Assembly (NCBI GenBank): GCA_000002435.2
Contig: CM018793.1
DNA length: 64,000 nt
Source of the DNA: Giardia intestinalis
Taxonomy: Eukaryota
Direction: 5' to 3' (one strand)
Every line of letters begins with the position of its first letter. The stretch's first letter is position 1. Below are positions 27,112-60,800 of the stretch, in pieces. The notes below the pieces were generated by a model. The model searched no databases and was not told where the DNA came from. It saw only the letters and a list, made by a program, of their open reading frames with translations. The position numbers and the translations under genes were made by a program.

Positions 27112-27185
27112 GGTCCGATAGTGTAGCTGGTTAGCACGTTCGCTTGACGTGCGAGAGGTCCGGAGTTCGAGTCTCCGTCGGATCA
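27112..27185 (+). tRNA. tRNA-Val, anticodon GAC
   Basis: Cloverleaf with acceptor GGTCCGA/TCGGATC, D arm GTGT-AGCTGGTTA-GCAC, anticodon stem TTCGC/GCGAG with loop TTGACGT, and T arm CGGAG-TTCGAGT-CTCCG. Close homology to eukaryotic tRNA-Val. Confidence 0.85.
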
Positions 27186-38832: not shown

Positions 38833-39282
38833 AGGCCACACAAAGTATTTTTAAAATTGGGATAAGTAATTATGCTATGCTACCTATCAGTGTGTGGAGC
38901 ACAATGAAGTCGGAAATGCACGAGCCAGCATATGGAAGGATGCCATGCACAACTGCCTGATTGTTCTTTATTGAAGTGATTGACATTGATAGAAGGTCTA
39001 ATGATAATGATTTACAAGGAAAAACTTTGATGAAGTACTGATGCCTGGAGACTCGAGCAAAGGCATAATATATGCCGCTGTTCAGTACCATCCCTTGTAC
39101 CCCCCAAAGCTAGATGTCGAAAGACTGCCGATCTATATCAACCCCAGACGCCTAAGCACTCTGACGAATTACCTCGAAGCCACTGACAAGGACTTGACTG
39201 CAGCGCTCAAGCGACGATTGATCCCTGTCGCTGGCAACGCTCAGCCAGCACACGGTAGCCGGCATGTAGACCCTGCTACCTC

Positions 39283-40878: not shown

Positions 40879-40924
40879 GAATAATAAGTGGACGAATAAA
40901 CTTTCGCAATTCAAATTTTATTAG

Positions 40925-43528
40925 ATGGAAACTGAAGCCGCTCGCGAGCTCGAGCGTGTGCAGAAGGAGAACTTCACCTTGAAGCTCAGGGTGTTTTCTC
41001 TGGAGCAGGAGCTTCACCCAGACCGTTCAACCGGCAAAGAGGCAGCCTTTGCATCTGAAATCAGTACGGAGATAGAAAAGAGGGACCAACTTCTTCTCAA
41101 AGCAAAATTGTCCATACAGTCTCTTTCCTCTGAGAACGACACCCTCCGCCATCGCCTCCAGTCAGTGGAGACGCTCCTTTCAGAGACAGAGACTCAGGCT
41201 TTAGAATGGAAGCAACGAGTGTCTGCATTTGATGCAGAAAGCGTGCTAAGGGGCAAGCAGGCAGAGTCTGCGCAGAATAACTTCAAACTAGCATGCCAAC
41301 AAATAGAAGAGCAGAAGCAGAAAATCAAGCAGCAGCACTATCTCATTTTACAACTTCAGAACAAGCTGAATCCATCCACTGGGGTCCCATCTGCTCCTCA
41401 GCCAGGCGGAGCAAGCACTGCAGGCCTCACGCAAGATGAAAGCGAGTGCCTTTTAGAGGACATAGGCGTTCAGTGGCGAAGGTATGTCTCTTCATTAGAG
41501 GTAAAACACGCAGAAGAGTTAGATGCAATCAAGAAAGGACATCAGCAGCAGCTGGAGCGCTTCTTCCAGGGGAAAAATAGCGAAATAGAAACATTTCAAA
41601 AGGATTACGCACAGCTTCAGGAGACAATCTTCGGATTGAGAAATCAGAACGCTGATCTGCATCGTGTGGTAGAAGATATGAAGCTTCAGGAGGACCAGTT
41701 CCGCCAGACAGCAGAGCACTTCAAAAATGATTCTATGGAGAAGGCGGGACAAATACAGCAGCTCAAGCTCGCATTAGGAGAGGCAGAAGATATAAAGATG
41801 CATGCGCAGTCTCTGCAGGCGGCTAATTCGTCTTTGGCAGATCAAGTTTCCGACCTCACCAGTAGAATTGAAATTCTTATCAGAGAGGCGTCCGATCGTG
41901 TGGCCGAAATCTCAAATCTCCATAGTGAAAAACTAACACTGGAGACCAGGGCAAAGCAGGCAGACACGCTTGAAAAGACGTTAGAGGCCAGAAGTACAGA
42001 ACTAAGCGAGCTACGGCGCGACAATATCAAGTACCAGGAAGACAATAAGGCTCTCTTTTTAGAAGTTGAACACCTGAGGATGGTGGCCAGCTTTGTACCA
42101 GAGAAGGAGGAGACCATAAGAAAACAACTTGAAATGATTACCGAGCTGCAAAACATCAACGTCCAAAATTCCTATGAAATTAATTCTTTGAAGGATACAG
42201 TTGCCAGTCTCAGTGCAAAGGAGGTGACAATAGCAGCTCTTACCAAGCAGCTGGAAACGGCAGATGCAGAGCTAAAGAGGCGCCAGATGGACTCTGTGGA
42301 GCTGACGAATCTGCGCTCAACTAACGACCAGGTGATGCTGGAGCTCACAAAGCTCCGAGCAGATCACGCCAGCGCTGGACGAGAGCTCAGAGAAATCAGG
42401 GAGGCTCATGATACCCTCAAGGCACTGCACAGTCAAGTGACCATGGAGGCCGACACTAGATCATCGGAGCTAACCGCAGAGCTGACTGCTTATAAAGCAC
42501 AGGCTTCCCAGCTGAAGACAAGAGTTGCAGAGCTGGAGCTGCAAGGGTCTTCCTTAAAGGCAGAGCTGGACACCGCTCTGGCCCATTTAGAGAGCAGAAC
42601 AAAGGATATTGAATTCGTCAAGACTGAAAAGTGCTCCTCAGAGAGGATTCTCACGGAGTATCGAGAGAATTTGAAAAGGCAGGAGCAAGAATTTGAGGCC
42701 ATGATGACTGAGCAGAATGAACGCATAGCAACGCTTGGGAAAGAGCTTGACAGCGTTTCCATTACGTTTCGTTCTGCATGCAAGGCTGTGGAGGACATGT
42801 CCGTGAGGCTACGTGTCAGTAAGATAACAAACGTGAAAACCCTTGAAGACATTCTCAGTATTACCTCAGCCGTAATTCGGCGGCACGAAGGAGTTCTTGC
42901 GGAGCTGGATGCGTCAAATACTCGAACATATGAGATCCAGCTGAAAGCCGACCAGACCCGCAGCGAGCTGGCTAGAGTCAAGAAGGAGCTGGACTACTGT
43001 AACGGAGAGATCGAGGGAAAGGACAAACGCACACGGGAGTATCTGGCGGAGATAGATACGCTAAACAGATCGATAGAAGGCATGCGGCAAGAGGTTTCTG
43101 TTGCAGAGAAGAATCTGAAGGAGGCTCTTGACCAGCGGTCAAAGCTCAAGACATATAACAATGAATACAAAGATAAAATTGCCCGTCAGGAACTAAGAAT
43201 CACGAGTTTGCAAGAAAAGATAAAGTCCCAGGAGGTTCTAGTGGCAGAGCGAGTTAAAGAGATCGAGCTTAGCATGCAACGCCAGGTCAAGACATTTCTA
43301 GACGCCATGACCGATCACATCTCTCGAAGGGTATCTCCAGAGATTGCCTTATCAGAGATCAAGCGATTCGAGTTAATCTTTTTGTCGACAGAGGATGCAC
43401 TTAACCGGCAACACGTACGGATCGGCGAGCAGCTCAATCCTCCCGCAGATCTACTGAACGATCCCCTCTTAGGGCATAATTTAGGCCCGGGTGTCCTGAT
43501 ATCTAGTAATGTTAGACCTGTTCTGTAA
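40925..43528 (+). CDS. Coiled-coil protein (867 aa)
   Basis: Almost continuous heptad repeats. ATG at 40925 behind an AT-rich leader. Confidence 0.75.
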   Translation: METEAARELERVQKENFTLKLRVFSLEQELHPDRSTGKEAAFASEISTEIEKRDQLLLKAKLSIQSLSSENDTLRHRLQSVETLLSETETQALEWKQRVSAFDAESVLRGKQAESAQNNFKLACQQIEEQKQKIKQQHYLILQLQNKLNPSTGVPSAPQPGGASTAGLTQDESECLLEDIGVQWRRYVSSLEVKHAEELDAIKKGHQQQLERFFQGKNSEIETFQKDYAQLQETIFGLRNQNADLHRVVEDMKLQEDQFRQTAEHFKNDSMEKAGQIQQLKLALGEAEDIKMHAQSLQAANSSLADQVSDLTSRIEILIREASDRVAEISNLHSEKLTLETRAKQADTLEKTLEARSTELSELRRDNIKYQEDNKALFLEVEHLRMVASFVPEKEETIRKQLEMITELQNINVQNSYEINSLKDTVASLSAKEVTIAALTKQLETADAELKRRQMDSVELTNLRSTNDQVMLELTKLRADHASAGRELREIREAHDTLKALHSQVTMEADTRSSELTAELTAYKAQASQLKTRVAELELQGSSLKAELDTALAHLESRTKDIEFVKTEKCSSERILTEYRENLKRQEQEFEAMMTEQNERIATLGKELDSVSITFRSACKAVEDMSVRLRVSKITNVKTLEDILSITSAVIRRHEGVLAELDASNTRTYEIQLKADQTRSELARVKKELDYCNGEIEGKDKRTREYLAEIDTLNRSIEGMRQEVSVAEKNLKEALDQRSKLKTYNNEYKDKIARQELRITSLQEKIKSQEVLVAERVKEIELSMQRQVKTFLDAMTDHISRRVSPEIALSEIKRFELIFLSTEDALNRQHVRIGEQLNPPADLLNDPLLGHNLGPGVLISSNVRPVL

Positions 43529-43535
43529 ATAGAAA

Positions 43536-45161
43536 ATGTCATGGAACAAGGCCGACCTCTCGCGAGTCAAGCAGTTTGCGCGAGATGAAGAAGATCTCCG
43601 CCGCCTTATGGAGATGACAGTCGTAGATCGAGAGGTTGAGATAGAGCGCCGCCACAACAGTCAGATTTGGGGGTCTGCCAAACCATACAGTACTACACAG
43701 CACTTCAATCCCACGCAGATAGATCTGGGGCTTGGAGATGATGACAATGTGCTGAAGGAGAGCTCAGAGTCATTTGTGGTTGAGGATGAAAATGAGGAGT
43801 CTGAACAGTTTACTAACTTCGCTACCCAGGAGCCCATTGAGCCCCAGATCACAGCAAAATGCTATCAGAATGTCATCTTGCCTGCACAGTTTCTTGTTAT
43901 GTATTCTCCGCAGTGGTTCTTTGAAGAAGTGATCCGGAAGCACGCGATGTTTCTTCTTCGGCTCAATAAGCTGGGAGCTAACGTCCTCCCCCAGTATAGC
44001 CGTAATCTTCTTATCCCTGTCCGTGTTTCTCCCGACATGTGGCAGTCTGACGCCAATTCATTCGGCGAAGTGTATCAGGAGAGCAGGGAACATATCTATG
44101 ACAGCTACTTGGCCAATCCTGAAATCTCTCGCTACTACGTAGAAATACTCTTCCCCGAAGATCTGCAGAAGGAGAAGCTTAGGGTTTCATGTGCAGATCT
44201 GGTTCAGGACGAAGAGCAGTACAATGAGAAGATAGAGGCGTCGTCTCTTTTCACGGACACAATGCTGCGGGAGCTCATGAGTGTCAACCAGTGTCCATAT
44301 AGAGCAGTTACATACCGTGAACTTGTGGAGTCTGGATTGGCAATCAAGGCAATCATGCAGGCTGTGATAGGGACTAAGCCAGAGCGGGAATACGTTTCTA
44401 AGTTGATCCAGTTTGAGAACTATATCATAAAGGCACTTAGCCCATTCCCCAATATTAAGATTAACCAGATTCACATGAGAATAGACGCCATAAATGACAG
44501 TGAAAAGCAAATTTTACTATGCCACCACGTAAAAGTAGAAGACTCAACACAAGATGAGTTGGAGGCTAGATACTCAGAGAGCAGCAGAAGGCACCTAAAG
44601 CAGCTTAGAGAGGAATTGCTTCGGTGTGAAGATGCATATAGAAAGTCTCTTACTGCAAAGAAGGAGATTAGCTATTCCCTATACAACACGTCTACTGGCA
44701 CCCAATCAAGCCTAGAGTTTATGTGTTTCAATTCCGCAGGATCATTGCAGCAGCTCTGGCAGAAAGCCTATAAGGAGCTCCTCACCAGCCATACGAAGCC
44801 GCAGTATGCAGAAAAGCTAGCTACACTCAAAGCGCATCTGAAGCTAGACAAGAGTGCGTCCGTTCAGACACAGCTGGGGAAGACCCTTCTGATGGCTGAG
44901 GCCATCGACACCTTTACACTTAATAGTGTGATTAACATCGCAGATGGCTTCTTCACTATCAAGGACCACGCGGACCTTGGCTCCTGGCCTTTATTGGGCC
45001 CCCGGTATCGGGTGGACATCTTGGGGGCCTGCACCGAAGCTTTCAAAGAAAACAGACGGAATGGAGCCTTCTACTTTTGCCATCGCTACGTCGAGGACGG
45101 CTGCACTGTTCTCAAATTCGCGAGCGAGCCGGCTCCCTGCCCGTCGTCTTCGCCCACTTGA
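43536..45161 (+). CDS. Hypothetical protein (541 aa)
   Basis: The ATG lies 7 nt after the upstream stop. Uninterrupted ORF. Confidence 0.65.
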   Translation: MSWNKADLSRVKQFARDEEDLRRLMEMTVVDREVEIERRHNSQIWGSAKPYSTTQHFNPTQIDLGLGDDDNVLKESSESFVVEDENEESEQFTNFATQEPIEPQITAKCYQNVILPAQFLVMYSPQWFFEEVIRKHAMFLLRLNKLGANVLPQYSRNLLIPVRVSPDMWQSDANSFGEVYQESREHIYDSYLANPEISRYYVEILFPEDLQKEKLRVSCADLVQDEEQYNEKIEASSLFTDTMLRELMSVNQCPYRAVTYRELVESGLAIKAIMQAVIGTKPEREYVSKLIQFENYIIKALSPFPNIKINQIHMRIDAINDSEKQILLCHHVKVEDSTQDELEARYSESSRRHLKQLREELLRCEDAYRKSLTAKKEISYSLYNTSTGTQSSLEFMCFNSAGSLQQLWQKAYKELLTSHTKPQYAEKLATLKAHLKLDKSASVQTQLGKTLLMAEAIDTFTLNSVINIADGFFTIKDHADLGSWPLLGPRYRVDILGACTEAFKENRRNGAFYFCHRYVEDGCTVLKFASEPAPCPSSSPT

Positions 45162-45232
45162 TCCGCTGTGTGATAAAAAAATAAATTGATTTTGAATTCG
45201 TATTGGCCTTTTTTGTTTCTGGCTCTGTGAAG

Positions 45233-45988
45233 ATGGGACGCAGGATCCGTGTACAGCGTAAGGGTGCGGGATCGGTCTTCCGCGCACACGTAGCACGACG
45301 CCTTGGGGCCGCGAAGCTCCGCGCCAACGATTTTGCAGAGCGCACAGGCTCTGTCCGTGGCGTCGTCAAGGCGATTCTCCACGACAGAGGCCGCGGCGCG
45401 CCCCTCGCAAGGGTTCAGTTCCCCAACATGCGTGGGGAGGGCCGCGTGAACGAGCTCTTCATCGCCCCGGAGGGTATGTACACAGGCCAAGAGGTCTTCT
45501 CTGGAAACAAGGCCACTCTGCACATCGGGAACATCCTCCCAGTGGGGAACATCCCCGAAGGTACCTACGTCTGCAACGTCGAGGAGAAGCCCATGGACCG
45601 TGGCTGTCTAGCGCGAGCATCCGGGACCTACTGCCTGGTTGTCGCACACAACATGGAGACAAACAAGACCCGCATCCGCCTTCCCTCCGGCCAGAAGAAG
45701 CTGATCTCCTCGAAGGCTCGTGCCATGATCGGCCTTGTTGCTGGCGGCGGCCGCACAGACAAGCCCCTTCTCAAGGCAGGAAACGCTTACCACAAGTACA
45801 AGGCAAAGCGAAACTGCTGGCCGGTCGTTCGTGGTGTAGCAATGAACCCTGTTGACCACCCCCATGGTGGTGGTAACCATCAGCACATTGGTGTGTCTTC
45901 CTGCGTCCCGCGCAATGCGGTCCCGGGTCAGAAGGTTGGTCTTATTGCTGCTCGCCGCACTGGTTGCTCTGGTGGTAAGCGCAGATGA
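45233..45988 (+). CDS. RPL8: 60S ribosomal protein L8 (uL2)
   Basis: [19 protein letters not shown]..., GRGAPLARV and [36 protein letters not shown]. The ATG is at 45233 because the track start 45203 is TTG. AGTAAAC follows the stop. Confidence 0.92.
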
Positions 45989-46038
45989 AGCACCTCGAAG
46001 TAAACACTGGAGCAAATTGTTTCTCTTATAAAAAAGCT

Positions 46039-47829
46039 ATGACGGAGACCTTTTCCCTGCGCATAATTAAGGTCGATGACCACCAAGAATGGACTGTCAG
46101 TGTCACTACGGATGCAACCATCGATATGCTGATCGGACTTGTAGCAGAGTCTACTGGCATAGAGCGGGGTCAATTTCGATTGGTTTTTAGGGGTCGGATA
46201 ATATCAAACTTACCCCCAGGGCACCTCATTAATGAGTGCGGGATTAATAGCACAAACAATTCTATCATTCTTGTCCAAAGGCGTTCTCATAATTTGGATC
46301 CTCCTGCGGAAAGACAGTCCACTCAGGCTCTGCCCCAGGCCCACGCAGCTGACGAGCAGCCCACGATTGAGGAGATAGCACCAAATGTCTATCGACTCAG
46401 GAGGCCTGTAGACGTTGCGAGTTTGAGGATGAGTGTGAGCCCAGAAATGTCGAATGTTAATCCTGTCGATATAGCACGCGATATATTGCAGGGTCTGTTC
46501 ACAGTTCAAGATGGGAGCGGGTCTCGTGTAGCCCCTCCCGCTAGTGGAACGTTTACCACAACTCTCCGCAGCAACTCTACTGAAAGGTCTGGAGATACCT
46601 CTAACCCCATGGTAGCCCTAACAACACTTCTGCATAATCTTTACTCCGACGAATCTCCCAACGATGGCACTAGTGATTCGTACAATGCAGTGATAAACAT
46701 CACCACCAACACTACCGCTCCATCCGAAGGAGCCAGCTCCTCACCGCAGCAAATAGTTTCGCCGACAGAGCATGCTACTGTTTCAGTTCTAATTCCTACA
46801 GACGCACAAAATCAACAGAGCCGTGCAACGCCGACTGACGGTGCTACCCATGGTCCTGTATTAACAGCTTTCCATGTTCCGTCCGTTCCGAATACTACAC
46901 CAATAAACGGGCGATCACTGAATGCTCCACGTCGTGGACAGTTCTCTTCCAGACCTGTTGGTTCTGCAGACCGCGCTCCATTCAGCCAAATATTCTTGGG
47001 CTCAATTCCAGGACAGGGGTCTACTTACCCTCGTGACGCACTACGTTACTCATCTAATAGCACGCAAACAGAGAGGGTCCTCTTGCCATTCGGCTCGGGT
47101 CCTGTCCGGCACGAGTGCAACTCCAATGTTTCAAGTATTACAGGCCCCCGGCCAGCCAGGAAGAACAGACAGCAAGGGAGCACAGCCATTTCGAAAGCGC
47201 GACGGTGCTTGCAACGTGCACGCGACGTCCGGTATCTGCACACAGATGAGTTACAAGCGCTGTTGAGCGATCTATCAGACATGTCTTCGACGCTTTCCAC
47301 AGATATCAACATATTTATGCAGAAATTAACGAGTCTAAATCGTCGCACGACACCTAGTGTCAATCATTCACACGAAGTAAAGAGAGGCAGAAGCGGACTG
47401 TCTACTTCCACAACATCGGCAGTGGTCGTTGGCGGACATCCAGTGACTCAGTCGTTGGTTATCCCGCTGCATGGACACGATCAGCTCCGTGGAAGTACTA
47501 CAAATTACTTTCACGAGAGCATACGCAAGCGAATCCTCAACCTTATGGGCATGTTGATCCACATCAATGCTGCCATTCCTCATTGTATCGATGCCCTCCG
47601 TAACTCTCTTTCCAACAGCATGCTTCAGATAGCAGCCCACAGGTCAGGCATCAGCAGCGACAGCCCCATAACGGAGTTTGGCAACAATGAACTCTTCAAC
47701 GAATTTATTTACAGGATTACGACAAACGAATTCGAAGAAAGGAATCTGCCCTCCACTGATGGCGATAGCGACGATAGCTCGTATGACTGGGATGACAAGT
47801 CATGCACGGCTTCGTTTCTGACAGAATGA
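46039..47829 (+). CDS. Ubiquitin-like-domain protein (N-terminal UBL) with a long S/T-rich region
   Basis: FSLRIIKVDDHQEWTVSV...GQFRLVFRGRII is a ubiquitin fold. The second ATG at 46039 is preferred because the first ATG at 45985 overlaps the RPL8 stop. Confidence 0.65.
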   Translation: MTETFSLRIIKVDDHQEWTVSVTTDATIDMLIGLVAESTGIERGQFRLVFRGRIISNLPPGHLINECGINSTNNSIILVQRRSHNLDPPAERQSTQALPQAHAADEQPTIEEIAPNVYRLRRPVDVASLRMSVSPEMSNVNPVDIARDILQGLFTVQDGSGSRVAPPASGTFTTTLRSNSTERSGDTSNPMVALTTLLHNLYSDESPNDGTSDSYNAVINITTNTTAPSEGASSSPQQIVSPTEHATVSVLIPTDAQNQQSRATPTDGATHGPVLTAFHVPSVPNTTPINGRSLNAPRRGQFSSRPVGSADRAPFSQIFLGSIPGQGSTYPRDALRYSSNSTQTERVLLPFGSGPVRHECNSNVSSITGPRPARKNRQQGSTAISKARRCLQRARDVRYLHTDELQALLSDLSDMSSTLSTDINIFMQKLTSLNRRTTPSVNHSHEVKRGRSGLSTSTTSAVVVGGHPVTQSLVIPLHGHDQLRGSTTNYFHESIRKRILNLMGMLIHINAAIPHCIDALRNSLSNSMLQIAAHRSGISSDSPITEFGNNELFNEFIYRITTNEFEERNLPSTDGDSDDSSYDWDDKSCTASFLTE

Positions 47830-47862
47830 GGTCTTAAAAGTTCTAGTAAATTATAGCTGGCG

Positions 47863-48825
47863 ATGAATTCTGCTGCGAAGCTGGATCGGCAGCTGTCCCA
47901 GATCCTCGAGCAGGTGCGGATACGGGCAGGGTCGCTGAGCACTGGGAGCCGTATAATCATAGAAAAGTGGGTTCTGAAGCTAATGGAGCAGCAGAGCCAT
48001 CTGGAATGGAAGAAGAATCGCAACCTCTACGGGGTCTATCTCCTCGACATGCTCATGAAGCGAACGCTTGACGATCCGTTTAATAAACGTCCACCAGACA
48101 CAGCGCTTCCAACTCTTCCGTCACACATAAAGCAGTATTACGGACGCATGACAAGCGAGATTTTGACGCGCAGCATAGACGAAACAGGCCTAGATCATGC
48201 TGTAGGGAAGTCAGGAATGGGAAAGTCTGTTTTGCGAGCCTCTTCTACATCTAGCGTTGGTAAGCTCGGGTTTAAGAATTCAGCCGTTAACAACACTCCC
48301 GCGTCTAACGACAGCAGGCTGCGCTCCTTATCTAATGCATCTAAGGTGCTTACTTCTGCTACAGCCATATACACACCTCATTCTAGTAACCACCCGTCCG
48401 CTCCCAATCTCAATGCCGACTTTGGGCTATCAAAGCCTTCTGCACCGTCTACTGCTTCTTTAACTGACAACTATCCTCCCGACCCTGTCGGGGCATTGCT
48501 AAGGCGGATTTATAACCCTGCGCCGGTACATGCCGAGGGCATCCATCATGAAAACAATGAGTATCAGCAACACTCAGCAATGCAAGGTGCCCCTTTGCTG
48601 TCTTCTCTAGACACGCTAGCCACTGCACCACATTCAGACCAGGTAGAGCATCAACTTACTGCTTCAAAACTTCGAATCCAGGAGCTAGAGAGCGAGATTC
48701 TGAACTATAAGAATGAAATAACGTCCCTTAAGCGTGTTATAGAGGCACTCAAGGCAGAGGATTTTGCACTAGAGAAAACGGCCAGACAAATCCACGCTGA
48801 AGCTTTATCAATCGTATCTATGTAA
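47863..48825 (+). CDS. Hypothetical protein with a C-terminal coiled coil
   Basis: ATG at 47863. The 320-aa ORF ends 38 bp before the left arm of the inverted repeat. Confidence 0.6.
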   Translation: MNSAAKLDRQLSQILEQVRIRAGSLSTGSRIIIEKWVLKLMEQQSHLEWKKNRNLYGVYLLDMLMKRTLDDPFNKRPPDTALPTLPSHIKQYYGRMTSEILTRSIDETGLDHAVGKSGMGKSVLRASSTSSVGKLGFKNSAVNNTPASNDSRLRSLSNASKVLTSATAIYTPHSSNHPSAPNLNADFGLSKPSAPSTASLTDNYPPDPVGALLRRIYNPAPVHAEGIHHENNEYQQHSAMQGAPLLSSLDTLATAPHSDQVEHQLTASKLRIQELESEILNYKNEITSLKRVIEALKAEDFALEKTARQIHAEALSIVSM

Positions 48826-49135
48826 ATTATTTTGCCACATATACTACGCCAATCTCGTGTTCGCTTCGGGCTCTACGTGGAGACGCGGGGCGCGCGGGTC
48901 GAGGCCTACGGGGCGGGCGCGGCCGGGACGCGGCTGCTCGGGGCGGCAGAGGTCCGGCTCGGGGGCCTGCTCGACGGGCGGGAGGTGCAGGCGGAGGCCC
49001 CGCTGGTCTGGGCAGGCGCAGAGATCGGGCGCGTGGCGGCGCGGATCGCGGCGGAGCAGGCGCTCCGAGTCCAGAAGTAAACAGCACAACCTGCAAACAC
49101 AGAAGCGCTTGTACTGTATGTGTTGGCGCTCCCGC

Positions 49136-49206
49136 GCATCAATGGTTTAGGGGTAGAATGCTTGCTTGCCAAGCAAGAGAGCCGGGTCCGAGTCCCGGTT
49201 GATGCA
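49136..49206 (+). tRNA. tRNA-Gly, anticodon GCC
   Basis: Acceptor GCATCAA/TTGATGC, anticodon stem CTTGC/GCAAG with loop TTGCCAA, and T arm CCGGG-TCCGAGT-CCCGG. Near-identical in layout to eukaryotic tRNA-Gly(GCC). Confidence 0.9.
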
Positions 49207-49427
49207 CTTTTCGCCCGGCCCGAGAAAACGGCCATCATATCATTACAGGGAGCGGGCTCAGGTGCATCGGCCCACACTGCGCCGAGACCTCATGAGGACC
49301 TCCCGCCTACTGTGCGTACAGTTACCTAAACGCATCTGTAATGGCTAAAGCACGCGGCGAGTAAGCGACCAGTTGAGAGAGCAAAGGTAGCTACCTCAGC
49401 AGGCCAGAGCAAGCAAGTAGGCAGTAG

Positions 49428-51150
49428 ATGTGTTCACTACCGAGCTCCCTCCTGGGGCAGCCCTCGGAGTGGGAGTCTCAGAGAGGAGGCCGCCGGGCAC
49501 CCCCACCCGCTGCACGCAATCCGGTCCACACCACAGCCTTTCTACTGATACCCCTGTTGGTGGTGAGCACCATCGCAGTGACCTGCCGATCAGATGGGAA
49601 CCATACAGCGACCTGCCAGACAGACAAGTGCGAGACGGTCGGTAGCACAGAGATCTGCACCCAGTGCAGGGCCGGGGCGTCCCGGTCGACGGCTTCTGCT
49701 GGCCCCCCGGCTCCATCCAGGCCGCGGCAGCCGGGTGCACCAAAGCAGACGGGGCTGCCCTCGACAAGACGGCAACCACCTGTGGAAAGTGCGGCGATGG
49801 GTACCTCCTCTTCATGGGCGGATGCTACAACAAGGATGCACACCCTGGCAGTGACATATGCACAGCAGCCAAGGATGGAGTATGCACTGCTTGTAAGGCA
49901 GATAACGGCCTGTTCAAGAACCCGGCTGCACCATCAGAGAAGGGTAGTGAGTGCATACTCTGTCATGATGCCACGGGAGCAAATGGATATAAGGGAGTGG
50001 CTAACTGCATACAGTGTCAGGCACCACAGAGTGCAGGAGCAGCTACATGCACTGCCTGTCAAGATGGATACTACAAGAACTCTCAGACATGTGAAAGGTG
50101 TGATGAAGCTTGCCTGACCTGTGAGACTGATGCGGCCCATTGTACCTTTTGTAAGGCCGGGAAGTATCTCGATGGGGATCAATGTGCTGATATCTGTGGA
50201 AGTGGCAATGATAAGTATGCTGACGAAGCTACCAGAACGTGCAAGGCATGTAGTACAATAACTGGGTGCACCGCGTGTGAATATAATCCAGTGACCAAGA
50301 AGCCAAAGTGCACCGCTTGTAGTGATAAGAAGGTGAAGACAGAGCTTGACGGGACAACCACTTGTGTAGATGCAAATGGGTGCGCAACAGATAACGTCGA
50401 CGGATCCCACTTTCTAAATCAAGCTAGAAATAAGTGTCTTCTTTGTAGCGATGACAAGACTAATACTAGCAGTCCACCTAATAAAGGACTTAAGGATTGT
50501 GGTAGGTGCAAAAAAGAAAGGGATGATGCAGCTTCAACCTGCTCAGAATGTCTGTCTGGATTTTATTTAGAAGACGCTTGCAAGACCTGTGATGCTAACT
50601 GTGCCGTGTGCTCTGAAAAAACACTAGTGGATAAGTGTAAAATATCCATGCAAGAGTGACTTTTAACCGGGATAGATGAAGGAAAGTGCATTAAGTGTGA
50701 TGCGAAGGCGGCTGAGAATACTTATGTCAGCGTTGAGGGCTGCCTCTCTTGCATAACTCCAACCACCCCAGGTCCGGCCAGCCGCGACCGCTGCAAGATC
50801 GGCTACACGTTACAGGGAGCAACGTGCGCGAAGGTATGCGAGGACGAGACTTCATGTAGAGGTACCTCCGGCTCTTGTGATGCTATAGTAATCGATGCTA
50901 ATGGAAAGGAGCTTCACTGCTCTCATTCGGCAGAGGAGCAGATAACGTGCCAAATGATGGGAAGCGTGTTAATAAAAACAGTACAAACGGAAATACTTGT
51001 GATAATCCTGTCTGTGAGTCTTACAATCAGGGATGCTTCTTATCTACAGGCGGTACCACCAGGTAGTAGACCTACCCAACAGTTACATGTGCAAGAGAGC
51101 AGATGGTGGCATTTTCACAGAAGCAGCAAGCGACAAGTACTTCGTGGCCT
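49428..51150 (+). pseudogene. VSP pseudogene, frameshifted and 3'-truncated. It keeps the signal-peptide and N-terminal region that the tandem-array units lack
   Basis: Frame A reads ...FLLIPLLVVSTIAVTCRSDGNHTATCQTDKCE. It shifts near 49680 into frame B (ORF 49664..50659: GGCYNKD...GVCTACKADNGLFKNP...), which stops at 50659. VSP-like text then continues in other frames (KCIKCDAKAAENTYVSVEGC..., YMCKRADGGIFTEAASDKYF) to about 51150. There is no TM or CRGKA. Confidence 0.8.
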
Positions 51151-53738
51151 TTGATATTATGCTGCTGGACTCGTCTGGGTGTGGTCCAGAGGTCTCACGA
51201 GTGGCCCTCGCTCAATTCCTGACCAATCCAGACGAGGGTTGGTTTTGGATAACATAACGAAAGATTCCCACCCATCAGTACATCCAGAGCCTAGCGCCTT
51301 CCCTGGTCGCTCTGTGGGTGTGTGCTCAGACCGAATGCGTACTTCGGTCCTTTCGGGGTTCAGGCCTTCTTACGGACTCTCTGGTCCACCAGTGGCGCCT
51401 CTTCTTGGTCTTCCTTCGTGGCGGGTGAAGCTCCGGTCGCTGTCTTTTTTAGATGCCCCGTCCGCCAGGGGCTGCCATCGGGCTCTCCGCTGGCTGGGCC
51501 CTCGGTGTCCGGGCAGCTGTGGCTCGAGTCAGTGCTCCCACGGTCGCGGTCACGTAGGTCTCAGTGGGCCGGCTGGTGGGTGAGGCAGGGGTATGGGGCG
51601 GTGAGGCTGGTGGGGACTGGTGGGGGCTGAGGTGGGGGGTGTCTGTATGTGCCTCTGGTCCCTCGATAGACTGGGGTGATCATAGCTGTGGTGACTGGGG
51701 GCTGTCCATCTGTGACTCACCCCTCTGTGTGCTCGTGGTCTGTGAGTGCCTCCACCCAGACAACCCTCAGGAGCCGTGCACACCAGACAGAGAGGATGAC
51801 CAAGGGGAGTCAAGTATCCCTGCCATGAGGGTGCACAGCAGCCAGCCTGGGCTGCATGGCCTGCTCAAGCGATGTAGTGACAGACGACTCCCTCTGACAG
51901 CAGCCCTGGTGACTGCACTGGTCTGCTCTCGAGGCTGAGTGACAGTGTGCACAGATGGACATGAGTGTAGGAGGGCCATCCACACACGGACAGACTGTGT
52001 GGACCCAGAGAGGACTGGAGTCTGCTCGGGACACGCTGACTGTAGACCTCATGCGAGAGCCCCAGACAGCCACCCGAGAGGCAGTGACAGACACGGGCAC
52101 CAGAGATCCCTAGCCAGACACATTGCTATGCTCATCCACAGGGGCATCAGAGGGCCAGGTGGAGTCACCCTCACAGTCAGGGCCTGGTAGGAAGCCAGAG
52201 GACTCACGCAGCACAGCAGAGCAGGCCCAAGGGAGGCACACTCCAGGCAGGTGAGCAGTGGCAGAGCCCTGACAGCTGCCAGCCCCCATGACACCCAGGC
52301 AGGCACCAGACTCACCGAAGACTCCGCTGGCCTCCATCGATGACCCGAGGGGGCAGCGACCAGAGGAGTGAGGAGGCCTTCGGACACCACAAGAGGCCCG
52401 GCTGTCCAGCAGGCGATGGAGCACAGGTGACCTCTGAGCACCACAAAGGCACAGGAGCCGACCATCAGAGTGATGCCCGATCACAGAGACGACCACGAGC
52501 ACCCTCCACCCACTCTGAGGGGCTGTCGATCATCCCACTGCCTCTCATAGCAGACCTCCTTGGAGGCAGTGCAGTGGGTGGCCCAGCTCATGCACGCCTC
52601 CCTCAGTATAGGGTGCCCCGACTCTCCCCGAGAAGTCATCAGAGCCACGAGGAGGGGTCAAGGTCCTGGTGGACCACATCGGGAACTCCTCGAGGGCACA
52701 GCAGGTGAGGTATGGGTAACCATCAGCGTGCTCCTCTCTGCATGATAGAGCATCCTGAGACCAAGGAGGATCACCTCTGCCTACGGACGACACACAGCGC
52801 TCCACAACGAGGACCCACCAGGAGCAGCACAGCTGACCACGGAGACAGTGCAGTCACTGGTGCCCCACCATGCCAGTCTTCTGAGCCATCACACTAGAGG
52901 CACGAGAGAACCCCATCCCATCCACAGGGTCATCCACACCCCTGCTGGTCCCAGGCGAACTACCGTCGAGGCACTGGACAGGGCATGCCAGGGGGCTCAG
53001 CAGACACGCACAGAGCAACAGGAGAGGCTGCGATGGCCTGCCTCAGTCCTCACGTACCGGCCAGGCAGAGAGGCAGTACTGCCCGAGGCATGCAGGGGCC
53101 AGGGAGGCACTCAGTCAGGGGGACACGACACGATCGTCGGTGCCTGTGTCTTGGAGTGCAACGAAGGCTGGGGATCAGACACAACCACCTTAGCAAACAG
53201 AGCGGGGATCACCCCAATGACCCACCGAACCCAGGGGCACATACAGACACCCCCCACCTCAGCCCCCACCAGTCCCCACCAGCCTCACCGCCCCATACCC
53301 CTGCCTCACCCACCAGCCGGCCCACTGAGACCTACGTGACCGCGACCGTGGGAGCACTGACTCGAGCCACAGCTGCCCGGACACCGAGGGCCCAGCCAGC
53401 GGAGAGCCCGATGGCAGCCCCTGGCGGACGGGGCATCTAAAAAAGACAGCGACCGGAGCTTCACCCGCCACGAAGGAAGACCAAGAAGAGGCGCCACTGG
53501 TGGACCAGAGAGTCCGTAAGAAGGCCTGAACCCCGAAAGGACCGAAGTACGCATTCGGTCTGAGCACACACCCACAGAGCGACCAGGGAAGGCGCTAGGC
53601 TCTGGATGTACTGATGGGTGGGAATCTTTCGTTATGTTATCCAAAACCAACCCTCGTCTGGATTGGTCAGGAATTGAGCGAGGGCCACTCGTGAGACCTC
53701 TGGACCACACCCAGACGAGTCCAGCAGCATAATATCAA

Positions 53739-55461
53739 AGGCCACGAAGTACTTGTCGCTTGCTGCTTCTGTGAAAATGCCACCATCTGCTCTCTTGCAC
53801 ATGTAACTGTTGGGTAGGTCTACTACCTGGTGGTACCGCCTGTAGATAAGAAGCATCCCTGATTGTAAGACTCACAGACAGGATTATCACAAGTATTTCC
53901 GTTTGTACTGTTTTTATTAACACGCTTCCCATCATTTGGCACGTTATCTGCTCCTCTGCCGAATGAGAGCAGTGAAGCTCCTTTCCATTAGCATCGATTA
54001 CTATAGCATCACAAGAGCCGGAGGTACCTCTACATGAAGTCTCGTCCTCGCATACCTTCGCGCACGTTGCTCCCTGTAACGTGTAGCCGATCTTGCAGCG
54101 GTCGCGGCTGGCCGGACCTGGGGTGGTTGGAGTTATGCAAGAGAGGCAGCCCTCAACGCTGACATAAGTATTCTCAGCCGCCTTCGCATCACACTTAATG
54201 CACTTTCCTTCATCTATCCCGGTTAAAAGTCACTCTTGCATGGATATTTTACACTTATCCACTAGTGTTTTTTCAGAGCACACGGCACAGTTAGCATCAC
54301 AGGTCTTGCAAGCGTCTTCTAAATAAAATCCAGACAGACATTCTGAGCAGGTTGAAGCTGCATCATCCCTTTCTTTTTTGCACCTACCACAATCCTTAAG
54401 TCCTTTATTAGGTGGACTGCTAGTATTAGTCTTGTCATCGCTACAAAGAAGACACTTATTTCTAGCTTGATTTAGAAAGTGGGATCCGTCGACGTTATCT
54501 GTTGCGCACCCATTTGCATCTACACAAGTGGTTGTCCCGTCAAGCTCTGTCTTCACCTTCTTATCACTACAAGCGGTGCACTTTGGCTTCTTGGTCACTG
54601 GATTATATTCACACGCGGTGCACCCAGTTATTGTACTACATGCCTTGCACGTTCTGGTAGCTTCGTCAGCATACTTATCATTGCCACTTCCACAGATATC
54701 AGCACATTGATCCCCATCGAGATACTTCCCGGCCTTACAAAAGGTACAATGGGCCGCATCAGTCTCACAGGTCAGGCAAGCTTCATCACACCTTTCACAT
54801 GTCTGAGAGTTCTTGTAGTATCCATCTTGACAGGCAGTGCATGTAGCTGCTCCTGCACTCTGTGGTGCCTGACACTGTATGCAGTTAGCCACTCCCTTAT
54901 ATCCATTTGCTCCCGTGGCATCATGACAGAGTATGCACTCACTACCCTTCTCTGATGGTGCAGCCGGGTTCTTGAACAGGCCGTTATCTGCCTTACAAGC
55001 AGTGCATACTCCATCCTTGGCTGCTGTGCATATGTCACTGCCAGGGTGTGCATCCTTGTTGTAGCATCCGCCCATGAAGAGGAGGTACCCATCGCCGCAC
55101 TTTCCACAGGTGGTTGCCGTCTTGTCGAGGGCAGCCCCGTCTGCTTTGGTGCACCCGGCTGCCGCGGCCTGGATGGAGCCGGGGGGCCAGCAGAAGCCGT
55201 CGACCGGGACGCCCCGGCCCTGCACTGGGTGCAGATCTCTGTGCTACCGACCGTCTCGCACTTGTCTGTCTGGCAGGTCGCTGTATGGTTCCCATCTGAT
55301 CGGCAGGTCACTGCGATGGTGCTCACCACCAACAGGGGTATCAGTAGAAAGGCTGTGGTGTGGACCGGATTGCGTGCAGCGGGTGGGGGTGCCCGGCGGC
55401 CTCCTCTCTGAGACTCCCACTCCGAGGGCTGCCCCAGGAGGGAGCTCGGTAGTGAACACAT
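53739..55461 (-). pseudogene. Inverted duplicate of the VSP pseudogene
   Basis: Mirror of 49428..51150. Confidence 0.8.
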
Positions 55462-55682
55462 CTACTGCCTACTTGCTTGCTCTGGCCTGCTGAGGTAGCT
55501 ACCTTTGCTCTCTCAACTGGTCGCTTACTCGCCGCGTGCTTTAGCCATTACAGATGCGTTTAGGTAACTGTACGCACAGTAGGCGGGAGGTCCTCATGAG
55601 GTCTCGGCGCAGTGTGGGCCGATGCACCTGAGCCCGCTCCCTGTAATGATATGATGGCCGTTTTCTCGGGCCGGGCGAAAAG

Positions 55683-55753
55683 TGCATCAACCGGGACTCG
55701 GACCCGGCTCTCTTGCTTGGCAAGCAAGCATTCTACCCCTAAACCATTGATGC
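55683..55753 (-). tRNA. tRNA-Gly, anticodon GCC, the inverted duplicate
   Basis: Exact reverse complement of 49136..49206. Confidence 0.9.
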
Positions 55754-55808
55754 GCGGGAGCGCCAACACATACAGTACAAGCGCTTCTGTGTTTGCAGGT
55801 TGTGCTGT

Positions 55809-57800
55809 TTACTTCTGGACTCGGAGCGCCTGCTCCGCCGCGATCCGCGCCGCCACGCGCCCGATCTCTGCGCCTGCCCAGACCAGCGGGGCCTCCGCCT
55901 GCACCTCCCGCCCGTCGAGCAGGCCCCCGAGCCGGACCTCTGCCGCCCCGAGCAGCCGCGTCCCGGCCGCGCCCGCCCCGTAGGCCTCGACCCGCGCGCC
56001 CCGCGTCTCCACGTAGAGCCCGAAGAGGGGGCTTTGTGTAACAGAGAGGTTCCGCGCTACAAATTCTAGTTCCAGCTGAAGTTGCCGTCGAGTTCCATTG
56101 AATTCTATGGCACGAGATACGAGAGGCTGAAAGTCCCAGAAATGCACAACGATGAATATATAGTGTGTGTTCTCCAAGGCATCTGCGGGGAGAAGATCTC
56201 GTTTGAGGTAGAGATTTGATATAGATATTTCATATGTAAGTTCATCGGCATCCTTGTCTGTATCTATAGAAAACAATTCTTCCGACTGATTTTGCTCGAT
56301 TATGCTGGACTTAACTGAAATATCAACGGTGTCTGCCATCTGGATACTAGGCTCTGGATCAACAAACTGGACAACATTATGGAGCTGCTGCTCTGACTGC
56401 TGAGTAACACTAGGATTGCTGGGAGTAGGCCCCGGTATATTACCGGGTAGGTGTTGTAAAGCATACCCTTGATGATGAGTGTTTGTCTCCATCACTGGAA
56501 ATGCTCTGATTGGGTCAGGCAGCTCACAGAAAGGCATGCTTAACTGCTCACAATCGTGCGGATCAACGGTCTCTCCACTTGCAATAAGGCGTGCTTGATA
56601 CTCCTCTAACATAATCTTGCACATCTTCATCCGCGCCGAAAATTGATCAGCGTCTGCTTGGCGTCGGGTCCTAAGCTCCAAGAGGGCTCTCCTTCCATCC
56701 CCAACTTGTTTGGTCAAGAGGTCTATTTCTGTTTGCTTTTGCTTCAGATCTTGCTTAAGTTCATTCTTTTCTTTGTCATGACGTGCAGCCTCCGTAGCAA
56801 GTGCAAGAGAGTGCTTTTCAGCCTGAAGATCTATATTGCTGTCGGCCTGCTTTCGTTCTGAGGCAAGCTTGCTCTCGTATTCAGTCCGTAAGCGCGAGAG
56901 TTCATAGGTGGACTTTTCTGTCAATTGTGATATCTGCGCCTTACTTTCTGCCTGAAGCACCTCATACTGTGCATGGATCGTGGCGCATTCCTTTCGTGTG
57001 GCCTCCAACTCTGCAGTGAGCCTTGCTATTTCCAAAGCCTTGGAGTCAAGTTCCTTCCTAAACTCTGCATTTGCTGATGCGCGACTATTGTCATCCGTTG
57101 TCCTGAGCTTGTCATAGAGCCGTTCATTTTCCAGCTTGAGTCTATTGTGTGCATCCTTGATTACAGCTAATTCAGTAGACGCCTGGGCTAGTTGCGCCTT
57201 TAGATCTGTTGCGTTTTTGTCACTAAGATAGCTAGTAGAGCTGAGTTCAGACTTCAATTTGATGTTTTCTGCCTGCAACTCGTCATTATCTTTCTCCATT
57301 TTTGTATGTAGCTCCTTTGCCCGCCCAACCTCCTCCTGCATGCTTAGGGCAGACTTTTCGCTCTGTTCTAACTGGGACGTCAACTCAGCGATCCTTTGCG
57401 TTTTACTTTCATCAGACTTGCGTAGTAATTCGTACTGCTCACGAAGGTAGATCAGATTTCGGTACAAGTCACCATATTTGGAGGTTAAGGATGCTAGCTC
57501 AGCCTTGACTGAAATAAGCTTTTCTTCCGCGCTACCAATCTCTGCCAAGGCTCTGCGATCGGATTTTCCTTGCGCGGATATGGACGAATTGTCTGTATCA
57601 GAATCTGCAAAATAGTTGCACAGTTCGCGCCGGACAGCCATGTGGGCCTCATTTTCAACCTTCAGCTTCCTCTTAAGCCCTATGATTACATGCTTCAGCA
57701 TTTTGACTTGGGCATGTACGTTTGCTGGAAGGAGCTTCTCCAGCTCTGCCAGCTCCTGTATGTCGTCGGTAGACAGGTCGCTCATAATGGAGCTGGCCAT
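55809..57800 (-). CDS. Coiled-coil protein (663 aa). Its last 72 codons are encoded by inverted-repeat sequence
   Basis: The start was set to the ATG (rc) at 57798-57800, MASSIMSDL. The track start 57950 is TTG and would overlap the divergent gene. The body is heptad-rich and K/E/L-rich. The tail GLYVETRGARVEAYGAGAAG...RVQK comes from about 80% GC repeat DNA. Confidence 0.75.
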   Translation of the reverse strand: MASSIMSDLSTDDIQELAELEKLLPANVHAQVKMLKHVIIGLKRKLKVENEAHMAVRRELCNYFADSDTDNSSISAQGKSDRRALAEIGSAEEKLISVKAELASLTSKYGDLYRNLIYLREQYELLRKSDESKTQRIAELTSQLEQSEKSALSMQEEVGRAKELHTKMEKDNDELQAENIKLKSELSSTSYLSDKNATDLKAQLAQASTELAVIKDAHNRLKLENERLYDKLRTTDDNSRASANAEFRKELDSKALEIARLTAELEATRKECATIHAQYEVLQAESKAQISQLTEKSTYELSRLRTEYESKLASERKQADSNIDLQAEKHSLALATEAARHDKEKNELKQDLKQKQTEIDLLTKQVGDGRRALLELRTRRQADADQFSARMKMCKIMLEEYQARLIASGETVDPHDCEQLSMPFCELPDPIRAFPVMETNTHHQGYALQHLPGNIPGPTPSNPSVTQQSEQQLHNVVQFVDPEPSIQMADTVDISVKSSIIEQNQSEELFSIDTDKDADELTYEISISNLYLKRDLLPADALENTHYIFIVVHFWDFQPLVSRAIEFNGTRRQLQLELEFVARNLSVTQSPLFGLYVETRGARVEAYGAGAAGTRLLGAAEVRLGGLLDGREVQAEAPLVWAGAEIGRVAARIAAEQALRVQK

Positions 57801-57826
57801 TTTTATGCTGAGAGCAAAAATTAGAA
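57801..57826. promoter_or_regulatory. 26-bp AT-rich spacer between divergent ATGs (57800 on the minus strand, 57827 on the plus strand), a putative bidirectional initiator region
   Basis: The sequence is TTTTATGCTGAGAGCAAAAATTAGAA. Giardia promoters are short AT-rich elements next to the ATG. Confidence 0.45.
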
Positions 57827-60800
57827 ATGGACGAATCTCACAGTGATCAACTACTGGATTATAGTGACGCAGTGCGCAGGATTTTATCAGCAAGTAGGTC
57901 ATCACTAGACCGTTCTGGTCGCCTTCATCAAAGGAGCCTTCCCATGACAACCGAAGACAGTTCCTGGCAAGGCGGAGCAGCAGCCTTGCAGGATTCTTTG
58001 GACGAGCCTCGCACCATCCCTCCAGTAGCAGAAGGCTCGCAGAAGCCTAATACAGCCGATGGCTATCTAACCTCATCTATGTTGGAGTTAGCAAACTCTA
58101 TGATCCACCAACCACGCCAATCTCCTGTTGTCGAGATTTTATCTCAAGCGCGACTAGAGATAGAAAGAAATCGTCAAGAAATCGACTTGCTACGCGCAAG
58201 CCTGTCTACAAAAGACAAACGGGTGACAAGCTTAGAGCATGAGCTGGATGCGTCCAGACAGCTTGCTTCCTCACTAACAGATCAGCTCAAAGCGCAGATC
58301 CAGGTTGCATCATCGGGATCTGTGCACGATCCAGTGCTACTAGCATACTCATTTAGTATGCAGACAATAGGCCCTGCTGTCTTGGATACTGGGCTCCAGG
58401 CGGATAACTTGAATGATAACACAGATCACAAGGAAGTAGAGAGATTGCAAGCAAAATTAGAGCAGATTACAAGTGAATATGAGGCACTGAAGATGGAGCA
58501 TGAAGACTCCCAGCTGAGGTTGGCGTCGGCCAAAAGCGAGAACGAATTCACTTCATTCAAAGCATTCCTCGAGTACAATCAACTGAAAACTGCACACGAA
58601 AATGCACTTACGCAGATCAATGCTGTCGAAACAGAAAACAGCCTGATGGATCATCAGGTGAAAGAGCTGACCTCTCAGCTTGAGATACTAAAAGAGGAGA
58701 ACGGCAAGCTTCTTTCTAAGGTGTCGGCCCTCGAAACAGAAGCTCTAAGCATACAGACACGGTATGACTCTGTCAAGGAGCAGAGCAGCATCTTGTGCAC
58801 GGAGAGTAAAAAGGTCGAGGAGTTGCTTAAGCAGCGAATAAACAATTGTCTGGATGAGTTGGTAGCAGCACGAACAGAAAGTGCAGAAAAGTCAAGTCGA
58901 CTTGACGATTGCACAAATGCATACATGAAAAAGTCAGAAGAGTTAGCAGCGGAGACGCAGCGATTCAAATCGCTGTTGCAGGAAGCTGCAGATTCCAACG
59001 AGCAGCTTGTAAGCCAGTGCAGAGACTTGGAAGAACGCTTGGCCAAGCAACAGACAGCGCATACGTCCGCAAGCAACGCTGTTAGTACAGCGCTGGTAGA
59101 GGCACAAAAGGGTAAAGAGGCACTTGAAAGCGAAGTAAGCGATGTACGCACGGCGCTCAGTCAAGCCATGGATGCGATAGAAGTTCTGAAAGCCGAAAAT
59201 GCTTCTTTACGGAAGAATACGGAGAAGAGCAACATATCAATAGCTGCACGGATGGATGCGGCCATATTAGCAAACAAGGCCAGTTTCGAGCTGCGAATAG
59301 CTCAACTAGAAAGAGAATTGGACGGAGCCCGCTCCGAGACATCTGTAGTCAATATAAAGCTCGCAACCCAGACAGCGCTAGTGGGGCAATCTCAGAAGGA
59401 AATTGACATTCTTAAAATATCCTTAGCAACGGCAGAAAATACTATTTCAACGCTGCAGCAAGCACTGGCCACATATACCGAGGAGGGGAACCTTAAACAG
59501 CAATATGATGCAACAACAGAGCAAAATGTAAAGCTCGCTGAAAGGGTTAAAGAGCTAGAAGTAGAACTGGATAAGCGGAAAACAAAGGAGCACGCCCTGA
59601 GCAAAGACCTCGAGTTTCTTAAAGAAAGCGCTGATAACTTGGCGAGAAAATGTGAACGTAGAGGTTCAGCCAAGTCTGAGCTACAGAATGCACTAAAAGA
59701 AAGGGATGCACAGTTGTCAGAGAAGGCTGTAGAGTTAGAAGTTCAAAAGTCCGAGTTTTCTGCACAGATTGCCCTATTGGAGGCTCACGCTCAGAGCGAT
59801 GCAGAACAACTGCGGAAGCTTAGCTTAGAAAAGGAAGAGCTGAACTCACAAATAAACGGCCTGAAGCAAGATGTTGCCAAACTCCAGATAGAGTTGGACA
59901 AAAAGGACATACAAACAGAGCAGGCCCGCACAAATACTATCAATACCATTAACTCCATATCGGCTGAGAACAAGTCACTTCTTCTCCGCCTTGAGCAAGC
60001 CACTGATGAGACATCCCGGTTACAACTGTCCAGCCAAAAGGCCACCACAGACATCATTCACCTTAAGCAAGAGATGGAGCAGCTCAGACAAGAGAATTCA
60101 GGCCTTCGCATGGAGTTAAAGGAGGCACTTACAAATAAGAACAAAATAGAAGCCCAAGCGAATGCTGATGTTGATGCATTGACTGCACGGATAAGTGAGA
60201 TGGTTAATGAAAGAAATGCTTACGAAAAAGAGCGACAGGAGCTGATGACTCTGTTAGAAGACAAGGAGTCGAGTCTGGACGCTGCACAGATAACAATTTC
60301 CAGCCAGATAAGCCACAAAAGGATCGCAGAGTCTTTATGCACAGAAAATAGCGCACTCAGGCTAGAACTGGAGCAGATTCGTCTCAACTCTGAACAGCTT
60401 ATTACTGAATCGAGACGGCAAAACGAAGAGTTGCTGCGTAAAAATCATTCCGTGCAACGTGCTCTCAACGAAAAAACACACGCACTTGATATGACGGTAG
60501 GCTTACTGAAGGAAGGCAAAGACACAGTGCAGCAGCTTCAGCAGGAAAAGGATATGCTGTTGAAGAAAATCGCTGAGCAGCAGGGGCTTGTGGGGTCTCT
60601 TCAAAGCAAGCTTGTTGCAAGGGACGCAGAACACGCCTCCCAACTGTTACAACTGGAGCTCCAGACCCAGGAGTATGCAACAGAGCTACGACAACTTACG
60701 GACCTTCACAAGAACTATCGCAAATCCATCGAGGCAGGAGATATCGCGGTCGCAGAAAAGCTTAATGCGCTGGCAGAGATCAATAGGGAGATAAGCCGAA

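Follow-up and report, generated by a model that had tools for sequence, protein, structure and literature searches.

Organization of the palindrome

The window analyzed here is a stretch of 64,000 nucleotides from chromosome 5 of Giardia intestinalis WB. At 48864-56025 it holds a 7.16-kb palindrome with a damaged gene for a variant-specific surface protein (VSP) in each arm, and these two pseudo-VSPs, the palindrome around them and their relation to a tandem array of VSP-like units at 1-9186 are the subject of this report. An earlier note, made from the sequence without database searches, had taken the pseudogene and the array units to be pieces of a single VSP family that complement each other. 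By repeat search of the window the palindrome was resolved into a left arm (48864-51658, plus strand) and a right arm (53231-56025, minus strand), both of 2,795 nt, separated by a central spacer of 1,572 nt (51659-53230). The arms are complementary at 2794/2795 positions, with the single mismatch at 51654, and each does carry the pseudogene, as the note had it. The left pseudo-VSP occupies 49539-51176 on the plus strand and consists of a leader, an N-terminal module and a CXXC-rich body; the right one is its mirror image at 53713-55350 on the minus strand. Translations of the mirror open reading frames (ORFs) at 54230-55225 and 54772-55461 in the right copy are identical to those of the left copy.

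Besides the dead VSP gene, the cargo of each arm comprises a tRNA-Gly(GCC) gene and a 217-nt fragment from the 3' end of a coiled-coil gene. The tRNA genes lie at 49136-49207 (plus strand; Rfam RF00005, 60.8 bits) and 55682-55753 (minus strand), both found by Rfam and ARAGORN. The coiled-coil gene, at 55809-57950, encodes 713 amino acids (aa), and its last 72 codons and stop reappear as the reverse complement at 48864-49080 in the left arm, where they read on the plus strand. The 82-aa ORF at 48832-49080 (...LYVETRGARVEAYGAG...RVQK) is identical to the C-terminus of the 713-aa ORF. This 3' end is functional only in the right-arm copy, the left one being functionless. Since the outer 217 nt of the right arm are the true 3' end of the gene, the right arm is probably the ancestral copy. 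The left neighbour of the palindrome is GL50803_005070.

The spacer is unique, has 62% G+C and contains no recognizable gene. It showed no similarity to itself or to the rest of the window, and arm-to-arm identity collapses after 51658. No Pfam matches were obtained for the spacer ORFs, and Rfam found nothing but tRNAs in the palindrome. A blastx search with 123 VSPs and two local cysteine-rich ORFs revealed no hidden VSP remnant past 51185.

Reading frames and lesions of the pseudo-VSP

The lesions were mapped by tblastn of three full-length VSPs (P0003, P0004, and P0010) and an array unit against the locus. The VSP-type leader described in the earlier note, FLLIPLLVVSTIAVTC, starts at 49539 in frame 0, and this frame covers residues 2-47 up to 49676. 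Residues 48-473 follow in frame 2 (49676-50935), after which the homology passes to frame 1 (50950-51054) and back to frame 0 (51075 to 51146 or 51176, depending on the query). At the position of the expected initiation codon, 49536-49538, the sequence reads GCC, residue 2 of P0010 being aligned to 49539. The PyAATGTT initiator was absent from 48864-49700, both on reading the sequence and in an initiator (Inr) scan. The nearest in-frame ATG, at 49428, lies 37 codons upstream of the first residue of the leader, and the frame that links it to the leader is not conserved in assemblage AII or in the paralogous contig L001. The start codon that precedes the signal peptide in a functional VSP is thus missing.

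Three frameshifts and one in-frame stop codon deprive the locus of the single frame that a functional VSP has. The first, a -1 shift at 49676 (feature 49674-49677), is seen both in the three-frame translation and by tblastn; one G has been lost from a G-run where CRAGGVPVDGFCW would be expected, and the frame that follows encodes CGKCGDGYLLFMGGCYNKD. The note had placed this shift near 49680. The stop that it had given at 50659 is an in-frame TGA at 50657-50659, after ...KISMQE, and is common to the AII orthologue P0121 and the models of the 2007 Sanger assembly. The TGA is not a long-read error, because it is found in the models of the older assembly and in three independent assemblies of a diverged lineage. 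The note's further claim, that VSP text continues beyond the stop in the other frames to about 51150, was right as to the extent (51146-51176); the continuation runs first in the same frame to about 50935, and only then in the others. The remaining two frameshifts, at about 50940 and 51060, lie in a zone (50936-51075) where the frames of the tblastn segments change from 2 to 1 to 0, and the same stretch is identical in AII.

In VSPs of 689-713 aa the homology extends only as far as residue 539-553, i.e., 136-174 residues before a normal C-terminus. As the note had stated, the pseudogene ends with neither a transmembrane (TM) segment nor CRGKA; the motifs CRGK, RGKA, GFLCWW, and LSTGAIAGI are absent from all six frames of 48864-56025. 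Pfam PF03302 recognizes what remains as a CXXC-rich VSP-homologous domain (35.5 bits, cut-off 31.4; E=7e-9).

We found 149 VSP homologues, the best intact ones being 46-59% identical to the pseudogene, and 70-88% in the N-terminal module. The closest intact-looking relative is P0002 (59% aa identity), which was rejected as an orthologue; its gene neighbourhood is different and it also has no start codon. The P0002 locus (L001, 9860-10000) and the stretch 49441-49577 share an ATG-less leader (…TTAFLLIPLFAVSTIAVTC) and roughly 100 nt of upstream sequence, at 93% identity; the P0002 locus has an upstream in-frame stop and no Met. Because the ATG-less leader and its upstream sequence are common to L001 and the pseudogene, a start-less 5' region appears to have spread among VSP paralogues.

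Annotation and expression

A part of the pseudogene is annotated as a gene. A 281-aa "High cysteine protein" (HCP), P0001, corresponds at 100% identity to the ORF at 49814-50659 and is carried as two adjacent entries under the current accessions KAE8304825.1/KAE8304826.1 (locus tags GL50803_00117440/00d117440) and as XP_001703955.1/XP_001704259.1 in the older assembly. It is highly improbable that this ORF is a genuine expressed gene for a secreted cysteine-rich protein, whose duplication would double its dosage. Such a gene would agree with the place of the ORF among the protein-coding genes of the reference annotation, with the conservation of its end in AII, and with multi-mapping RNA-seq values of 0.25-24 transcripts per million (TPM) in some samples (10.1101/2022.03.07.483299). 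However, uniquely mapped expression in the same source is 0 in 14/14 samples, and its supplement lists the pair as duplicates with about 0 TPM. The annotated N-terminus MGGCYNKDAHPGSD (MGGCYNKDAHPGSDICT) has, judged by reading, no hydrophobic signal sequence. The ORF is an internal slice of a frameshifted VSP, with homology that runs upstream in another frame and downstream past the stop, and the AII counterpart starts differently, in that a 400-aa ORF reads through out-of-frame sequence. The signal peptide and the complete ORF of its own by which a secreted HCP is known are thus not found here.

According to 10.1101/2022.03.07.483299 most annotated HCPs are pseudogenes, and those without a signal peptide were reclassified as such. 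The locus is an instance of the type II cysteine-rich pseudogenes, or former HCPs, described there. It shares with them the missing signal peptide, the split frames and the truncated C-terminus, differs from them in nothing material, and is tabulated as a pair in the supplement of that work.

The palindrome in other isolates

Short-read contigs from at least 20 WB-type samples are 100% identical to 37863-48893 and stop 30 nt into the arm, the signature of a repeat boundary. The flanks in assemblage AII match those of WB at 99.1% (98 differences over 11,001 nt, or 0.89%; 1.84% at third codon positions). Here contig L015, from isolate DH, runs from the left flank to 1,598 nt into the arm, while L016, a k141 contig, stops exactly 141 nt into it. 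On the opposite side L012, running from the right flank into the arm, and L013 have the arm joined to that flank, and L014 starts precisely at the boundary of the arm. AII hence has both outer junctions of the palindrome. In isolate P15 of assemblage E, where the flanks are 88.6% identical to WB, the contig that carries the left neighbour reaches 52 nt into the arm before it ends, and both the junction and the duplicated coiled-coil fragment are the same.

These contigs also bear on the suspicion that long-read assembly created the inverted duplication, the frameshifts or both and so conceals one gene that may be intact. Long-read artefacts typically take the form of perfect palindromes and homopolymer indels, the 49676 frameshift sits in a G-run, and exact look-ups of the 281-aa and 331-aa ORFs (with V or M as the first residue) in short-read assemblies returned nothing. 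The 281-aa model, however, stood twice in the Sanger-era annotation already. Independent short-read contigs break at the arm boundary by exactly k-1 or k nt, left and right junctions were both recovered in AII, and the TGA and the 3' truncation are found in three independent AII assemblies. We regard an artefact as extremely unlikely.

Between the lineages the arms have diverged, while within each they are alike. The left arm of AII (L015) and the right arm of AII (L012) are identical at 1598/1598 positions, whereas an alignment of WB and AII arms over 2,433 columns has 89 mismatches and 45 gap columns (94.5% identity). Windowed comparison showed that the difference is concentrated in a mosaic patch at 49564-50163 (plus strand), where 60 mismatches and 44 gap columns fall within 600 nt; outside it the divergence is about 1-2%. 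The version of the patch is the same in both arms within each lineage, left and right AII sequences being equal. The patch is probably an ectopic conversion tract, first acquired by one arm from another VSP and afterwards passed on to the other arm. Its donor was not found among the relatives compared: L001 and L018 are somewhat closer to the AII version (79.5 and 84.8%, respectively) than to that of WB (76.8 and 78.2%), and neither is the donor. The gaps of the patch include a 30-nt indel at 49580-49609 that also occurs in the paralogous L001.

Among the lesions, the frameshift at 49676 is specific to the WB lineage; AII has an extra base (an insertion at 49674) but indels of its own elsewhere. 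The TGA, the 3' frameshifts and the truncation are common to WB and AII, which do not differ at all over 50564-51063, and the AII 400-aa ORF ends with the same KISMQE*.

The palindrome thus pre-dates the split between AI and AII, and probably also the split between assemblages A and E. We infer that its arms are kept identical by recurrent arm-to-arm gene conversion and not by recent duplication, because the junctions are common to AII (the left one also to E), and because the arms are identical within lineages and 5.5% apart between them. Several points weigh against this account. The AII left- and right-arm sequences come from different isolates and assemblies, and short-read assemblers collapse repeats and pop small bubbles, so that a small number of differences between the AII arms may have gone unseen. 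The evidence from assemblage E amounts to 52 nt, and no AII or E contig crosses the spacer. Furthermore, L012, L013, and L014 all end at the equivalent of 51286 (53603 in the other arm), and their last ~45 nt are increasingly unlike WB. The status of the VSPs as pseudogenes, likewise, is read from sequence and from published expression tables. The point at which the AII contigs end in the three independent assemblies is 372 nt short of the inner end of the WB arm, and the inner boundary or the spacer may differ between the lineages.

Relation of the pseudo-VSP to the tandem array

The repeats at 1-9186 (plus strand) are arrayed head to tail and recur every 1,835 bp. Tandem Repeats Finder did not report the array, as this period is above its 500-bp limit, and it was recovered by another repeat search. 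A partial unit, delimited by the repeat search and direct reading, ends at 62; four near-identical units follow with ORFs at 131-1897, 1966-3732, 3801-5567, and 5636-7402, all ending in CRGKA and differing from one another by 3-7 nt, and a variant terminal unit without CRGKA lies at 7471-9186. CRGKA occurs five times in the array, which scores 121 bits with PF03302. The units are separated by a spacer of 68 nt, at 63-130 and every 1,835 bp thereafter, which follows a TAG (60-62) and contains an AGTGAA polyadenylation-like hexamer and the low-complexity sequence GTGATAGTGG. An in-frame stop at 122-124 lies within the spacer, and the frame of the unit opens 3 nt after it without ATG. None of the units has an ATG or the leader and N-terminal module (about 106 aa) that the pseudo-VSP retains, which was the starting point of the earlier note.

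This is a typical pseudo-VSP linear array of headless units. As in the arrays described before (PMC2996952, PMC7000408, PMC7641422), the units run head to tail with short spacers, keep conserved CRGKA 3' ends, and have no start codon, Inr or signal peptide. According to Adam et al. (2010; PMC2996952) spacers in linear arrays average about 60 bp, and downstream members have no initiator and often no ATG. Two differences from the published arrays were observed: units 1-4 are near-identical, i.e., a true tandem repeat and not an array of diverged paralogues, and the terminal unit is a hybrid whose 3' end is unlike that of the others and has no CRGKA.

The pseudogene and the array units are truly homologous, since their similarity is collinear and far above that of shuffled controls, and the reservation that it might be one of generic CXXC repeats without collinearity does not hold. 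The identity of about 85% that had been claimed over the shared body was not reproduced. A global alignment of 49850-51150 with 128-1475 gave 62.1% over all columns and 75.1% over ungapped ones, the identity being 81% over the initial 100 nt and falling to 53-66% past 50150. Two matches and no others were returned by blastn, one of 49850-50156 with 128-437 (75.0%; 316 columns, 9 gaps) and one of 51084-51143 with 1397-1459 (76.2%). The homology does start at the 5' boundary of the array unit, where 49850 corresponds to 128, 3-6 nt past the stop at 122-124, but the coincidence is uninformative on kinship. It is trivial, because the boundary marks the start of VSP coding sequence after the 68-nt spacer of the preceding unit, and an alignment with any VSP of full length would begin at this point; headless units of other isolates (P0030 and P0057) begin at the same ICT residues.

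Kinship was ranked over the shared body among 123 sequences, i.e., 120 database relatives and three array units. The array came out as only the ~42nd-46th closest to the pseudogene, with 41.5% aa identity, while over 40 further VSPs, drawn from WB, P15, DH, and additional isolates or environmental assemblies, were closer (46-53%). The pseudogene and the array are therefore not each other's nearest relatives. Two third-party loci match each of them better than they match each other: L001 is 76.8% identical to the pseudogene (1031 nt aligned) and 79.2% identical to the array (1058 nt), and for L018 the values are 78.2% (609 nt) and 75.6% (721 nt), respectively. The longest exact match between pseudogene and array is 21 nt, with no 25-mer in common, whereas third-party VSPs have runs of 42-67 nt in common with each locus.

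It follows that the homology is of the generic kind common to all VSPs, and the two loci are ordinary paralogues, not halves of one gene or subfamily. We give very little credence to the idea that a single VSP subfamily survives in two complementary remnants, the 5' part in the palindrome pseudogene and the 3' part with its tail in the array units, and that these could recombine to an intact gene. The idea draws on the collinearity from 49850/128 to about 51146/1459, on the division of parts, with leader and N-terminal module in the pseudogene and TM and CRGKA in the array, and on the literature, in which pseudo-VSP arrays have been entertained as reservoirs for recombination or gene conversion. 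It is contradicted by the rank of the array, by the low nucleotide identity, by the short exact matches, and by the start of homology, which is generic to VSPs. Moreover, joining the 5' piece to an array unit would yield no intact gene, because the piece has no ATG and is frameshifted. Since the two loci are not a matched 5'/3' set, they do not argue for VSPs being put together from complementary fragments in the manner of trypanosomes.

Comparison with known systems and interpretation

Headless arrays, truncated or frameshifted pseudo-VSPs and identical inverted pairs have all been documented for this genome, and the GL50803_00117440/00d117440 pair has already been annotated and tabulated. 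Of the identical inverted VSP pairs reported by Adam et al. (2010; PMC2996952), 14 in number, ten are tail-to-tail; in these the ORFs are 2393-3222 bp apart, and the 3' flanks are identical for 318-559 nt before an abrupt loss of similarity. Xu et al. (2020; PMC7000408) counted 12 convergent pairs, spaced by 2526-2777 bp in the part of their Table 2 considered here.

The present locus resembles the tail-to-tail pairs of WB, of which vsp1267 is the prototype, in having two identical convergent copies, about 2,540-2,590 bp between the VSP ends and an identical 3' flank of 482-508 nt, both within the published ranges, and, past an abrupt divergence, a unique centre of ~1.6 kb without annotated gene. 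It differs from them in that neither member is a complete VSP gene, both being dead, and in that the arms also carry the tRNA-Gly gene and the fragment of the neighbouring gene. Because both members are dead, the pair is filed under HCP and is absent from that part of Table 2 in Xu et al. (2020). The region 51150-53739 had no match in the 3' flanks of L001, L018, and L019, none of which is known as a tail-to-tail pair. Published work has read the identity of tail-to-tail pairs as recent duplication (PMC2996952, PMC7000408); unlike that reading, the palindrome described here is older than the AI/AII split and probably than the A/E split.

A parallel for the history of the arms is given by the ampliconic palindromes of primate Y chromosomes, which are homogenized by arm-to-arm gene conversion and have arms of up to Mb size. 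There, as here, arms are near-identical within a lineage and diverged between lineages, outer boundaries are conserved and the spacer is unique. The Giardia arms differ in their length of 2.8 kb and in their cargo, a dead gene and a tRNA gene without evident selective benefit. Giardia is a tetraploid, binucleate organism.

Taken together, we consider, with a probability of about 0.85, that the stretch is one arm of a 7.16-kb palindrome with a dead VSP, a decayed tail-to-tail pair whose members are ordinary paralogues of the array and whose arms are homogenized by conversion. Recurrent arm-to-arm gene conversion would keep the two arms identical, and the 600-nt patch would have been taken from another VSP and then copied into both. 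The dead VSP probably serves no function itself and persists as a passenger of the self-homogenizing palindrome. For this pair perfect arm identity would mean long-term homogenization of an old palindrome and not recent duplication. If the same were true for the ~20 intact VSP pairs, their identity would have to be read differently, and intrachromosomal gene conversion would be active at VSP loci.

An RNAi-type pathway has been proposed as the silencer of non-expressed VSPs. Transcription through both arms could give a hairpin with a stem of ~2.8 kb, a possible Dicer substrate for silencing of this type, which would account for the retention of a dead pair in a homogenized palindrome since before the A/E split. 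The stem would hold the most conserved VSP 5' sequence, with an upstream region and leader 93% identical to another VSP locus and an N-terminal module 70-88% identical to many VSPs. We consider such a role very unlikely; the signal for the pair in the published expression table is near zero (10.1101/2022.03.07.483299).

Observations around the array

With regard to linear arrays in general, Adam et al. (2010; PMC2996952) speculated that they are either a reservoir or discarded genes, and the reservoir idea has also been put forward for G. muris (PMC7641422). Several older VSP gene models of WB (P0022, P0044, and P0066) begin with translated spacer (MLYSDSDSDS...; GTGATAGT-type, SDSDSDS). As these models start in this way, the spacer family of the array separates units in other arrays too, and some annotated N-termini are spacer artefacts.

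The last unit of the array diverges from the others from about 8960 (region 7341-9611) and ends with ...GLVGLLC*, without CRGKA. Together with 425 nt of downstream sequence, its 3' end (9097-9611) matches at 93-95% identity the corresponding end and flank of the gene for P0016, a 749-aa "VSP" of isolate DH on L018 (DH contig AHGT01000182.1), which ends with ...VVVGLPC* and likewise has no CRGKA. Because the terminal 3' end and its flank match the P0016 locus, the array abuts an older resident gene with a damaged tail. Just downstream of the array two cysteine-rich ORFs follow on the plus strand. The first, at 9805-12303 in an island of 62-66% G+C, encodes an 832-aa protein with a C-terminal TM segment and no CRGKA, which resembles a high-cysteine membrane protein (PF03302, 158 bits); the second, at 13198-14352, comprises 384 aa and has no ATG. 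Farther along the window, 27112-27186 is a tRNA-Val(GAC) gene, of which a 93-nt copy with flanks, 97.8% identical, occurs at 464-556 of the AII contig L012. By its position this copy would fall past the right end of the window, i.e., it would be a second local copy.

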